Notes under the pieces: model-generated
The model's database searches: none
The model's input: only the letters and a program-made list of their open reading frames with translations
Told to the model about the DNA's origin: nothing
Part shown: positions 47,909-55,530 of the stretch, piece after piece
How positions within the stretch are numbered: the first letter of the stretch is position 1
Layout of the letters: each line of letters starts with the position of its first letter
Assembly: GCF_000027125.1 (NCBI RefSeq)
Contig: NC_017626.1
DNA from: Escherichia coli 042
GTDB lineage: Bacteria; Pseudomonadota; Gammaproteobacteria; Enterobacterales; Enterobacteriaceae
Length of the DNA: 64,000 nt
Direction: 5' to 3' (one strand)
Translations under genes and position numbers: made by a program

Positions 47909-48019
47909 GTTGGTTCAGTTGGTTCAGTTGGTTCAATTTGTAAAGAGTATTGTTTTATAAGGATTTTATTCTTTTTATTGAACCAACACTGAACCAACAA
48001 CACGGTATTTTGAACCAAC
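47909..48019. repeat. Iteron cluster 1, candidate replication origin
   Basis: Three tandem GTTGGTTCA 9-mers (47909–47935), an AT-rich spacer, then three spaced inverted TGAACCAAC copies (47979–48019), directly after the primase gene. Confidence 0.8.
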
Positions 48020-48069
48020 ACAATGTGACTGAATTGATGCGCACAACACCTGGCTGGCATCAGAGAGTA

Positions 48070-48146
48070 TTTTACGAGACTTTCGTAAAATCCTGTGTAC
48101 AAGGGCGTGACGTTTTTGAAAGTGAGCACTACGAAATTTTCGTAGT
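48070..48146. promoter_or_regulatory. Pair of related palindromes, candidate operators
   Basis: TTTTACGAGACTTTCGTAAAA (48070–48090) and the perfect 19-bp palindrome ACTACGAAATTTTCGTAGT (48128–48146); shared TACGAAA half-site. Confidence 0.45.
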
Positions 48147-48339
48147 TCAGAAAACAGCCACTGAGAAGTTGTTATGCCTGTTCAGCAAACCATCCGCATA
48201 GCTGATCGCGAATCAAATTACCAATGGAGCCAGAAGCAAGGGCAGAACTGAAAAGCGCCTGCCGTGAAGGGTAATGCGACACCATAAATATAGTTTTTAG
48301 AGTCCATAAAAAACCTGTCAAAACCTGACACACAGAACG

Positions 48340-48373
48340 ATGCCACCAGCTACTGAGCGGTGGCATTTTTTTG
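48340..48373 (+). terminator. Rho-independent terminator before the cargo operon
   Basis: ATGCCACC-loop-GGTGGCAT followed by TTTTTTTG. Confidence 0.7.
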
Positions 48374-48467
48374 TGCTATCTGTTTCATATTTTGCAATTA
48401 CGATGATGAATATTGCGATTTGTGAAACTATAATAACTGTTGTTTTATACAGTTCTAAGGGGGCGTT

Positions 48468-48629
48468 ATGGCTATTTCAGTAAAGCCGGTATTGATAAGT
48501 GAGAAGCAAATGGAAGCGATAAAGAAAATTCAGGAAGAGCAGCGTAAAAAATCAGGAATTGGAGTAGCGCCAACTCTGCATGAAATTGCTCGAGGGTTAA
48601 TAGATAAGGCGCTGGCAGGCTGTATGTGA
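48468..48629 (+). CDS. Small protein (53 aa), first gene of the cargo operon
   Basis: Manual translation MAISVKPVLISEKQMEAIKKIQEEQRKKSGIGVAPTLHEIARGLIDKALAGCM; AAGGGGG Shine-Dalgarno 6 nt upstream and a TATAAT hexamer at 48429–48434; below the ORF-track size cutoff. Confidence 0.5.
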   Translation: MAISVKPVLISEKQMEAIKKIQEEQRKKSGIGVAPTLHEIARGLIDKALAGCM

Positions 48630-48645
48630 AAATGGATGGCATCGC

Positions 48646-53304: not shown

Positions 53305-53308
53305 CTGG

Positions 53309-53332
53309 TTAGCCACGGATGGCTAATTTTTG
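53309..53332. terminator. Bidirectional terminator shared by the cargo operon and the convergent membrane-protein gene
   Basis: TTAGCCA-CGGA-TGGCTAA hairpin then TTTTTG. Confidence 0.65.
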
Positions 53333-53742
53333 TTCTTTGCTCTCATCCACAGGTAAAGAAGGGCAATAACAAGACAAAAAACAGAGAATAGATAACCTAC
53401 CTCATATGGTGCGCCAAAAAAATTAGCTATTGATACGGGCAAAAAAGCTGAAGCGATCAAAATTGAAAGGCAAAAAATAAGCCCAGTAATATAGTTTATT
53501 AAATTCTTAAATGAGAAATGTTTTGCTTGATTTACGGTCTTAGCGAATGATCGCTTAACGACGGATAAAAGCAAATAGATGGCGACAGTTGCTAATGCCC
53601 CTTTCCACCAGTCTGGATATAGTTTTGCGACAACCAGACCAAGGAAAACCATGATGACAGCCTGAGCATTCACACCAACCCTCCCTTTAGCGTTGTTTAG
53701 AATGGCAATCATCATATATCCAAGACATGGCATTTGGTACAT
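53323..53742 (-). CDS. Small multi-pass membrane protein
   Basis: 139-aa ORF with about four hydrophobic helices; start codon uncertain. Confidence 0.5.
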   Translation of the reverse strand: MYQMPCLGYMMIAILNNAKGRVGVNAQAVIMVFLGLVVAKLYPDWWKGALATVAIYLLLSVVKRSFAKTVNQAKHFSFKNLINYITGLIFCLSILIASAFLPVSIANFFGAPYEVGYLFSVFCLVIALLYLWMRAKNKN

Positions 53743-54705
53743 AGCTTGGGTCGGGATTTCAAATCCGATCCCCGTTGATGGGGCCGTTACAGTACGCGCA
53801 TATCCGCTTTATGTGAAACAGGAAGATTTTTCTGATATCACTGCCACAGCAAAACACCAATTTCGTGACCAGTACGCGCGCGAGGTGTATCAGTTGCAAA
53901 ATTTTTTGCAGCTGTGTCCGACCAGTACGCACGCGATGGCGGGGAGCACCATAAAACTGTTCTCTACATAAGACAGAGTGGTGGTGATGTGTTGATTATC
54001 GGCGTATATGCGCACAGGACGCGCTATGACGATGTTTTATGCGGGTACACCAATCACATGTATCTGGTGTGATAAATCGCGTTACATGACCTCTCATGTT
54101 GTGCTGGTGGTTATCACGACGTTCTGAATCTGGCCTTTGCCTGGTATTTTGCGACAAGTACGCGCACGTAGCATCGAAATAATCGGATGGCGTATGCTGC
54201 TGGTAATATGAAGACCGATAGCATTAACCGAAAGGATAAAGACTTCTCGATAACGGCAAGGGGGCTGAATTGCGAGGCGAGATTAAGCAACTGTCTTGAA
54301 CGTAAAAATCATGGAGCAACATGATGGTACGATTCATTCCATTCTTCGTTCTTTCTGAGCATTGCGTTCAGGCTTAGTCAAAATTAGTGTTGCGAGCGGA
54401 CCTATTAGTAATTGTTGGTGCGATGCGCCTGTTATGGATTGTTATGGTTGTGGCAGGCCTGATTAATATCCAGTATGACCACCAGCTATGAGAGGCCACC
54501 TCAGTGGTTCGCAGTTGCAGGTTTGCACTCAGGTTCGCAGGGTTTTGGCTACTTTCACGTGCGAACCTGCAGAATTGCAAAGGACAACTAAGTCCTCTGG
54601 CCAACTCCCGGTTTATGAGCGACACAGTCCGCCTGGCGCATCGTTTTCGTCGAGTGCGCCCATCAGCTTGTCCATGGACTATCCACCACTCGATATTAAA
54701 GTTAA

Positions 54706-54891
54706 TCATTGGTTGCCAGCCCGCGAATCAAGTTTGTTCTGGATCCAAGCTTCAACCTCCTCAAGCGACCATCTAGCTGATCTACCAATTTTAACTGGCT
54801 GTGGAAACGTGCCCGTCTTAACCCATGAGTAGATTGCCGTTTTCTTGAAGCCCGTTCTGAGCATGACTTCGCTTAATTTGATAAGGCGCAT
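54706..54891 (-). CDS. Second AlpA-family regulator
   Basis: 61 aa, MRLIKLSEVMLRTGFKKTAIYSWVKTGTFPQPVKIGRSARWSLEEVEAWI, a typical AlpA HTH. Confidence 0.75.
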   Translation of the reverse strand: MRLIKLSEVMLRTGFKKTAIYSWVKTGTFPQPVKIGRSARWSLEEVEAWIQNKLDSRAGNQ

Positions 54892-55409
54892 AGAGGCTCC
54901 TCTGCTTTAGATTAAGCATAGTGACAATCTGGCTTTGGGCGGTATCCAAAAGCGAGGTATCCATGTTGGTATCCACCAAAACGCTGTTTACCAAAAAAGT
55001 TACCACCGGAACAGGACATTTTGAGCTGTAACTTAACACATAGCATATGGAGTTCACGCATAGACTTCACGCACAACGGCTCCGGCCAGTGAAGAATCAC
55101 CCTGGCTGGCAATATAATGCCGATCACCATCAGAGGGGAATCCATGACACCACGAGAAATCGAGCTGCTGACCATTGCCAAGCTGGAGCATGACGGCCAC
55201 CAGCTCAGCCCGGCAGAATTGCGGGAATTAAGGCGCCAGCTGGCAGAGGGCCCTGTAATAGCCAGGCGGTACCGCGAAATGATGACCAGCCCCGCATATC
55301 GCTGGAGCAAACCAGCGCCGCTCCGTGCGCGGTGAGCAGCACCTAACCAGCACTAGACAAGCCCTGTGCTGGTGGATGTCCCTCATAATTAGCGGTTTTT
55401 AAACGGCGT

Positions 55410-55530
55410 GTTGGTTCACGGCCTCTTTTTGTTGGTTCAAAAATGGGGTGTGTTGGTTCACTTTTTGCGAATAATCCTTTTAAAAACAATACTCTTTACA
55501 AATTGAACCAACTGAACCAACTGAACCAAC
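55410..55530. repeat. Iteron cluster 2, inverted copy of cluster 1
   Basis: Three spaced GTTGGTTCA copies (55410–55460), AT-rich spacer with the same AAAACAATACTCTTTACAAAT core, then three tandem TGAACCAAC copies (55504–55530); approximately the reverse complement of cluster 1. Confidence 0.8.

Follow-up and report, generated by a model that had tools for sequence, protein, structure and literature searches.

In phage P4, a satellite, the sites ori and crr are both required in cis for replication, and the alpha protein loops the DNA between them. In iteron plasmids, clusters of iterons pair at a distance. The origins of phage-inducible chromosomal islands (PICIs) have been described as lying 3' of the pri-rep gene and consisting of oppositely oriented iterons on both sides of an AT-rich region; together with pri-rep, such an origin suffices to replicate a plasmid (PMC6092414). 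Among these islands, EcCIMP1 of Escherichia coli MP1 is induced, excised, circularised and transduced by the P22-like phage Kapi1 (PMC11773190). The present work deals with a 19.9-kb island sited between yicC and dinD in contig NC_017626.1 of E. coli 042, within a stretch of 64,000 nt that was analysed as a whole and is called the window below. This island carries two clusters of 9-bp repeats, A and B, which are probably the two initiator-binding units of one replication origin of an EcCIMP1-like PICI, split by 7.4 kb of genes. The published description of PICI origins comprises one unit, and the second, inverted unit, present here and in every relative examined in detail, appears to be new.

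Clusters A (47909-48019) and B (55410-55530) are mirror images, and together they hold 12 exact copies of the 9-mer GTTGGTTCA. The 64-kb window has 14 such copies in all, against a chance level of about 0.3 exact copies as estimated from shuffled 26-kb relatives. With at most one mismatch to the 9-mer, 38 matches are found where 14.4 +/- 3.4 are expected, a number reached in none of 100 shuffles. The first-pass annotation had described two mirror-image clusters some 7.4 kb apart, each made of three tandem repeats, an AT-rich spacer and three spaced opposed copies, and exact matching confirms this arrangement (Table 1). Cluster A begins 26 nt past the primase stop codon. With three plus three iterons opposed around a 43-nt spacer, 3' of the primase gene, it has the form of a PICI origin, in keeping with the earlier view of the primase-adjacent cluster as an origin. 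By the published definition, A and B each constitute, by form, a complete origin unit. In the window, as in most relatives, a TATATA box and the next gene come within about 15 nt of the outer triple of B; in the window this gene encodes a PerC-family regulator. The tandem triples and a spacer core, ATTTGTAAAGAGTATTGTTTT, are part of an inverted repeat of 55 nt whose arms (47902-47956 and 55483-55537) are 98% complementary; outside it, the likeness between A and B is limited to the 9-mers and their spacing. When units were compared by sequence, A units resembled other A units and B units other B units, so A and B are old paralogues and not the product of a recent duplication.

Both units are conserved in their iterons and geometry. 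Across genera, the columns of the tandem triple are 94% identical in A and 92% in B, compared with 51% and 49%, respectively, in the outer flanks and about 55% over the remaining spacer positions. In all units of all genera, 70 nt separate the start of the triple from the first opposed copy, and the opposed copies are spaced by 11 and 21 nt in A, a pattern held in seven genera, and by about 21 and 21 nt in B, that is, by one or two helical turns. The spacer core is conserved at 78% in B and 54% in A. Since the iterons are conserved and the flanks are not, selection acts on both units. In two elements (L028 and L064), a rare iteron variant is common to A and B at the same position, and the core of A matches that of B in the window and in Cedecea; these shared features suggest occasional gene conversion between the two units.

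The relation between the units becomes apparent when primase neighbourhoods are compared. The comparison covered diverged E. coli islands and 57 loci from one-genome-per-species contigs of the Enterobacterales; at each locus, the most repeated 9-mer after the primase gene was mapped in up to 10 kb of downstream DNA. At the majority of loci, two mirror-image units adjoin each other, back to back, and share one gap of about 300 nt after the primase gene. This compact pattern consists of two or three tandem copies in the forward direction, an AT-rich stretch and three to five spaced reverse copies, followed by one or two spaced forward copies, an AT-rich stretch or 34 nt, and two or three tandem reverse copies. 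Right after the second unit come an AT-rich, TATATA-containing stretch and the next operon. The plan was mapped in detail in 15 loci that use at least eight iteron words, including GTTGGTTCA, GTTGTCTCA, GCGGGTTAT, GTCGGTTCA, GTGGGTTAT, GTTGTCCCA and GGGATAAGT, and this set includes two capsid-forming PICIs (cf-PICIs), L006 and L007. The normal origin of these satellites would therefore be a pair of inverted units lying back to back in the gap of about 300 bp after the primase gene, and because B adjoins A in the compact relatives, the window follows this plan, but its units are 7.4 kb apart. The second copy is a true inverted copy and not a chance occurrence; the first-pass annotation had called it unexpected, a view that is not supported by the compact relatives, in which it is a regular part of one origin.

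The split form recurs in E. coli, at two att sites, and in at least seven other genera, with gaps of 1.9 to 8.8 kb overall. In E. coli the gap measures 7.4-8.5 kb, or 1.9 kb in a circular record of 12.2 kb that has no ejection genes; it is 5.9 kb in Lonsdalea, 8.8 kb in Chimaeribacter, 7.2 kb in Rosenbergiella, 6.8 kb in Cedecea, 4.8 and 6.3 kb in Serratia, 8.4 kb in Leclercia and 7.1 kb in Enterobacter. In a neighbour-joining tree of the C-terminal two-thirds of the primase, every deep branch is compact, while split forms alternate with compact ones in the crown, which suggests repeated transitions between the two. In L034 (Yersinia pekkanenii), three compact two-unit origins lie within 6 kb, at about -5.7, -1.1 and +0.05 kb from the primase end; the match to the primase there extends over an unusual 3.9 kb, and this triple origin could be a tandem duplication or an assembly artefact. 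The inner flank of unit B in L014, L019, L021 and L022, from four genera, carries the motif GTCTTAC(N4-5)GTCTTAC followed by GGTGATAAAAT, beside a leftward gene for 130-150 aa, and the motif may be an operator for the product of that gene.

The compact relatives also bear on the idea, raised at first, that B marks a second element, namely the origin left behind by an inverted satellite after its fusion with the first one and subsequent decay. The presence of a second AlpA-family gene near B, on the opposite strand, would fit such a history. A degraded primase beside B, which the first-pass annotation had named as the finding that would point to simple decay, was looked for and is absent: between 48020 and 58000 no primase remnant was detected, the best tblastn match of the primase having an E value of 2.3 and blastn of 44000-47901 giving nothing better than 0.4. 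The PerC gene occupies the place where a second primase would be, and no degraded primase was seen outside B in more than 60 loci. B is moreover orthologous, with intact iterons, in at least eight genera, and a B-type unit adjoins A in compact relatives, so that a fused and decayed satellite is scarcely credible as an explanation.

Another proposal was that the clusters are recombination sites, which would either flip the 7.4-kb segment or allow cassettes to be swapped between islands. The 55-nt inverted repeat, at 98% identity, could support RecA-dependent inversion, the genes found between A and B vary from genus to genus, and the rare iteron variants shared within L028 and L064 suggest gene conversion. 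However, a synthetic inversion junction had no spanning match in 503 E. coli genomes carrying the sequences, and neither of the two inversion junctions occurred in 40 IMG/VR stretches, compared with 12 native junctions. Neither annotation nor PHROGs revealed any gene for an invertase or another recombinase within or beside the interval, and compact relatives have nothing between the two units. As for exchange of cargo, homology among E. coli islands is continuous from the primase gene through A into the gp14 and gp7 genes. A is never a mosaic breakpoint in E. coli, and a single comparison, with L005, breaks exactly at the inner edge of B. An invertible or exchangeable module is thus largely refuted at the level of assemblies, and we regard recombination as a very unlikely function of the clusters. 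The first-pass annotation had also asked whether the segment between the clusters is the variable part of the island. Variable stretches in E. coli do lie inside the interval (49939-53747 and 54234-55408), but the region to the right of 55647 varies as well. A small 53-aa gene, a conserved marker of the cargo module, lies beyond the second unit in compact relatives, and the interval is consequently no defined cassette.

If A and B are two parts of one origin, the primase-helicase is the candidate for the protein that reads them. Its helicase part is homologous to the 'Pathogenicity island protein' of PDB entry 8TCH (phmmer, E 1e-11, residues 403-814) and to the SCCmec helicase 5DGK. An alignment of 18 primases from GTTGGTTCA-using elements with 7 from GTTGTCTCA-using elements showed six consistent differences, five of them at residues 892-897 of 919. 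Across 32 loci compared, the last 25 or so residues of the primase fall into types that track the iteron word, with four tail types and four words at 25 loci. The tail ...QRKSPRIxGRQINVYVL goes with GTTGGTTCA (14 loci, including cf-PICIs), ...QGRVRExGRQIRVYVL with GTTGTCTCA (5 loci), ...YKKKALxKxGGKQHVFYVL with GyGGGTTAT (4 loci) and ...TRKSLRIDGKQPRFVVL with GTCGGTTCA (2 loci). Both outer iteron arrays change together with the tail. Such covariation is what would be expected if the primase tail reads the 9-mer, although it is a correlation that is partly confounded by shared ancestry.

The following sequence of events may be envisaged. Upon excision induced by the helper phage, the 19.9-kb circle would express the primase-helicase, which would recognise the 9-mers through its C-terminal tail and load itself at the AT-rich spacers. 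With both units presumably occupied after excision, A and B would pair by looping out the 7.4 kb between them, as reported for P4 alpha with ori and crr, or else fire as two origins. Initiator bound to the outer triple of B would probably affect PerC transcription as well, since that triple lies just upstream of the TATATA box and the PerC start.

Several observations weigh against this interpretation. Eight relatives have only unit A within 10 kb downstream of the primase gene, and B lies further on or is absent; direct repeats of at least 16 nt that would mark island ends were not found in the 10-kb flanks of these eight loci. Should B indeed be absent from them, it would be dispensable. About one in three compact origins (L004, L009, L023, L039 and L044) has no AT-rich spacer in its second unit, which agrees more with a binding site than with another site of melting. 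The tree that places the compact form as ancestral carries no support values. Binding of the primase to A or B, as well as the need for B, are predictions from sequence, and the paper on EcCIMP1 mentions neither a replication origin nor iterons (PMC11773190). The link to PerC is a guess based on the conserved TATATA box, and a simple sigma-70 scan found no consensus promoter next to A or B.

Some of these points would be accommodated if unit A alone were the origin and B were a control site for the same initiator, either an operator of the PerC gene or a titration or handcuffing locus, or both, that limits copy number and causes incompatibility in the manner of P1 incA or the extra iterons of F and R6K. 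A holds the canonical PICI position, the outer triple of B is close to a TATATA box and the next gene, several compact origins have a second unit devoid of AT-rich spacer, and several relatives show no B within 10 kb. In all split elements, however, B keeps a full AT-rich spacer of 43 nt and the same 70-nt geometry as A, and its better-conserved spacer core would not be expected of a mere titration site; nor does the promoter scan near B favour an operator. A role restricted to control is possible but in our opinion doubtful. It overlaps with the split-origin interpretation, as B could do both.

The island belongs to the EcCIMP1 family, and the primase genes of the window and of E. coli MP1 are 99.6% identical. 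The A/B pair is present in EcCIMP1 as well, with the units 8.4 kb apart, and that island differs from the one in the window in its integrase and att site. When used as a query, unit A (151 nt) matched 541 of 5,426 complete E. coli genomes, at a median of two places per genome. Both units also occur on islands at another att site, thrW (L002 and MP1). About 170 E. coli genomes have either a match of the compact type or a single match like that of L003, a degraded island with an IS1203 insertion (E. coli O111 110512, 12690-13831) that keeps only unit B, PerC and the second AlpA gene in rearranged order. Two dinD genes (L004, 18476-20477) come after a related island at the same site as the window island, so that the 5' part of dinD may become duplicated or replaced upon integration.

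In complete assemblies, some of these elements have been deposited as separate circles. The circular E. coli 'plasmid' record L107 (NZ_CP148430.1, 12,152 bp) carries int, the primase gene and A and B 1.9 kb apart, without ejection genes. A separate, circularly permuted island record of 19.2 kb exists, and there are circles from Klebsiella as well. L005 (NZ_LT599831.1) and L108 (CP031370.2) are likewise EcCIMP1-like or related islands in separate circular 'plasmid' or 'phage' records, with int, primase gene and origin units. Among phage and plasmid records, those of one Klebsiella phage and seven 'plasmids' matched a unit, and the three 'plasmid' records that were judged are island-like circles or a mislabelled chromosome. 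The stand-alone circular records are consistent with autonomous replication, and their existence as separate records suggests a plasmid-like state, as in P4.

The gene content of the island is summarised in Table 1. In its left part, the integrase gene is followed by an AlpA-type regulator, an antirepressor, several small genes and then the primase gene. Among the traits of Gram-negative PICIs (PMC6092414), a terminal integrase, an att site with flanking direct repeats and an AlpA-family gene after int, with rightward transcription, are present. Genes for phage structure or lysis are not expected in PICIs; the annotation of the island shows none for capsid, tail, terminase or lysis, but the island does possess four virion genes, homologues of P22 gp14, gp7, gp20 and gp16. 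By its gene order, the position of its origin and the homology of its Rep protein, the island can be classified as a PICI, with those four genes as the exception. The content of the interval had been correctly named at first as ejection-protein homologues, a membrane-protein gene and a second AlpA gene. The latter matches alpA_1 of EcCIMP1 in position, strand and family, a gene found to be dispensable for excision of that island (PMC11773190). At the right end, the Doc-family gene and the 351-aa gene look like an accessory toxin-antitoxin or defence pair.

Table 1. Features of the island in E. coli 042, in window coordinates.
Feature	Position	Strand	Basis
Putative attL, left copy of the 24-nt bounding direct repeat	38054-38077	+	92% identical to 57959-57982
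Tyrosine integrase	38135-39394	+	RefSeq annotation of the 99.6% identical locus L001
Helix-turn-helix gene (AlpA-type regulator) after int, co-oriented on to the primase gene	40448-40651		Annotation
Primase-helicase gene, 919 aa: Zn-ribbon, TOPRIM, DUF927 P-loop helicase, C-terminal tail	45124-47883	+	Pfam, PHROG DNA primase
Unit A, tandem iterons: three head-to-tail 9-bp GTTGGTTCA copies	47909-47935	+	Exact matches
Unit A, AT-rich spacer: 43 nt, 84% A+T (island 53%), presumed melting site	47936-47978	.	Composition and published PICI origin model (PMC6092414, PMC9371898)
Unit A, opposed iterons: three copies starting at 47979, 47990 and 48011; start-to-start 11 + 21 nt	47979-48019	-	Exact matches
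Hairpin resembling a strong intrinsic terminator, between unit A and the ejection-gene operon	48340-48372	+	Sequence
Operon: 53-aa conserved small protein, then P22 gp14, gp7, gp20 and gp16 homologues (ejection proteins)	48468-53304	+	PHROGs, E 1e-66 to 1e-179
139-aa hydrophobic (membrane) protein	53323-53742	-	Translation
Second AlpA/excisionase-family gene (54706-54891) and 111-aa gene downstream of it	54374-54891	-	Annotation, PHROGs
Conserved 72-aa open reading frame, end 75 nt before unit B	55117-55335	+	tblastn homologues in many loci
Unit B, spaced iterons: three copies starting at 55410, 55431 and 55452; spacing 21 + 21 nt	55410-55460	+	Exact matches
Unit B, AT-rich spacer: 43 nt, 77% A+T; core ATTTGTAAAGA..TTGTTTT, 78% conserved across genera	55461-55503	.	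Composition, cross-genus alignment
Unit B, tandem iterons: three head-to-tail copies, then CTATATAG and the PerC start codon	55504-55530	-	Exact matches
PerC-family regulator gene directly 3' of unit B	55567-55854	+	Annotation, PHROGs
Doc-family toxin gene after a 351-aa gene of unknown function, island right end	56267-57792	-	Annotation
Putative attR, right copy of the bounding direct repeat, upstream of dinD	57959-57982	+	Repeat search, annotation

The conserved 72-aa reading frame before unit B is absent from the RefSeq annotation, which calls a 45-aa open reading frame on the opposite strand. Three Rfam families match above their gathering scores, int-alpA RNA at 39403-39469, isrK at 42478-42555 and C4 antisense RNA at 42618-42705. 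The latter two fall within the RefSeq 'ash family protein' reading frame (42097-43164), which may therefore be a spurious call, and the island may have an RNA immunity system in the style of P1 and P4. A 22-nt sequence upstream of isrK (42416-42437) recurs, at 91% identity, at 48292-48313, just before the terminator that precedes the cargo operon. Control of that operon by RNA was considered and rejected, as the duplex energies of C4 or isrK paired with 48100-48480 were within those of shuffled controls.

The genes that separate the units differ between lineages. In E. coli they encode the P22-type ejection proteins. The interval of Chimaeribacter encodes a tape-measure protein, identified with PHROGs, which a protein of Leclercia resembles in sequence. 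Rosenbergiella and Cedecea encode a lytic tail protein that has a transglycosylase domain, and Serratia has proteins of the baseplate hub and the tail. These genes for virion DNA delivery, at 48468-53304 in the window and downstream of the primase gene in L019, L021, L022, L028 and L058, often come after the conserved 53-aa gene. The virion DNA-delivery genes are apparently matched to different types of helper.

What looked like a stray second origin can thus be reduced to a simple rule, a mirror-image, two-unit origin whose units adjoin or lie kilobases apart. No new kind of system is revealed. The relatives provide a natural series of gaps (0.1, 1.9 and 4.8-8.8 kb) in which to study cooperation at a distance by self-loading primase-helicases, a question addressed so far mainly in P4. 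The two-unit repeat plan is a practical marker to find and delimit such islands. A short C-terminal patch of the primase is indicated as the specificity determinant, and satellites with the same iteron word are predicted to be incompatible. A more speculative extension, to which we attach limited credence, is that the PICI and cf-PICI replicons of enterobacteria are generally built on the two-unit inverted origin, a plan not described before, with units that cooperate at a distance. The primase-helicase would bridge A and B and loop out the helper-matched cassette for virion DNA delivery, so that initiation, dosage or expression of the cassette, and PerC transcription would be coupled in one nucleoprotein complex. 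Gaps of 0.1-8.8 kb would be tolerated because pairing matters, not adjacency, and the six-residue patch at 892-897 would be a portable specificity code that sets the incompatibility groups of satellites.

Comparison with described replicons places this origin among several known types. With the origins of PICIs and of Staphylococcus aureus pathogenicity islands (Ubeda et al.; PMC6092414), it shares the location directly 3' of pri-rep, the iterons opposed around an AT-rich region, and an initiator that is a self-loading helicase with a C-terminal DNA-reading part. In contrast with the published single-unit origin, there is a second, inverted unit, kilobases away in the window lineage. The compact origins of the cf-PICIs L007 (O157:H7, between roxA and phoQ) and L006 (O18ac) have the two-unit inverted plan and the 70-nt geometry, and L006 shares its iteron word and spacer core with the window. 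Unlike in the window, only some 100 nt separate their two units, and an operon with SSB, PerC and capsid genes comes directly after the second one. As in the iteron plasmids (P1 incC/incA, F, and R6K alpha/beta/gamma), a single initiator would serve several iteron clusters on one replicon. The initiator is, however, a TOPRIM/DUF927 primase-helicase and not a winged-helix protein of the RepA or pi type, and B, which mirrors an entire origin unit and includes an AT-rich spacer, is more than a bare iteron array. An analogy, of function only, can be drawn with the palindromic origins of SV40, polyomavirus and papillomaviruses, in which inverted arrays of initiator sites lie by AT-rich DNA and self-loading hexameric helicases are placed in opposite orientation. 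The proteins and hosts are unrelated, and the viral origins are always compact.

The closest known system appears to be ori/crr of P4, for which the GenBank record NC_001609 was used. No sid, psu or delta gene was found in the RefSeq annotation of the identical island or among ten proteins scanned, and hence the island cannot be counted among the P4-like satellites. The N-terminal Zn-ribbon and TOPRIM parts of its primase are homologous to alpha (33% identity over 359 aa, E 2e-41), whereas the helicase and DNA-binding parts are unrelated in sequence, the island having DUF927 in place of the P4 type. In P4, crr directly follows the 3' end of the alpha gene, with ori 4.8 kb away, just as A lies 3' of the primase gene and B 7.4 kb away, and an AlpA/Vis-family gene is near the distal unit in both. 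The roles differ in that the primase-adjacent unit of P4 is crr, the distal one is ori and the replication operon lies between them, while the island interval holds ejection and accessory genes. Unlike the pair in the island, crr is a direct duplication of a unit. Like A and B, ori and crr are both built from one repeat, the 8-bp type-1 repeat of P4, as a tandem pair, an AT stretch and an opposed copy, and they stand in opposite relative orientation.

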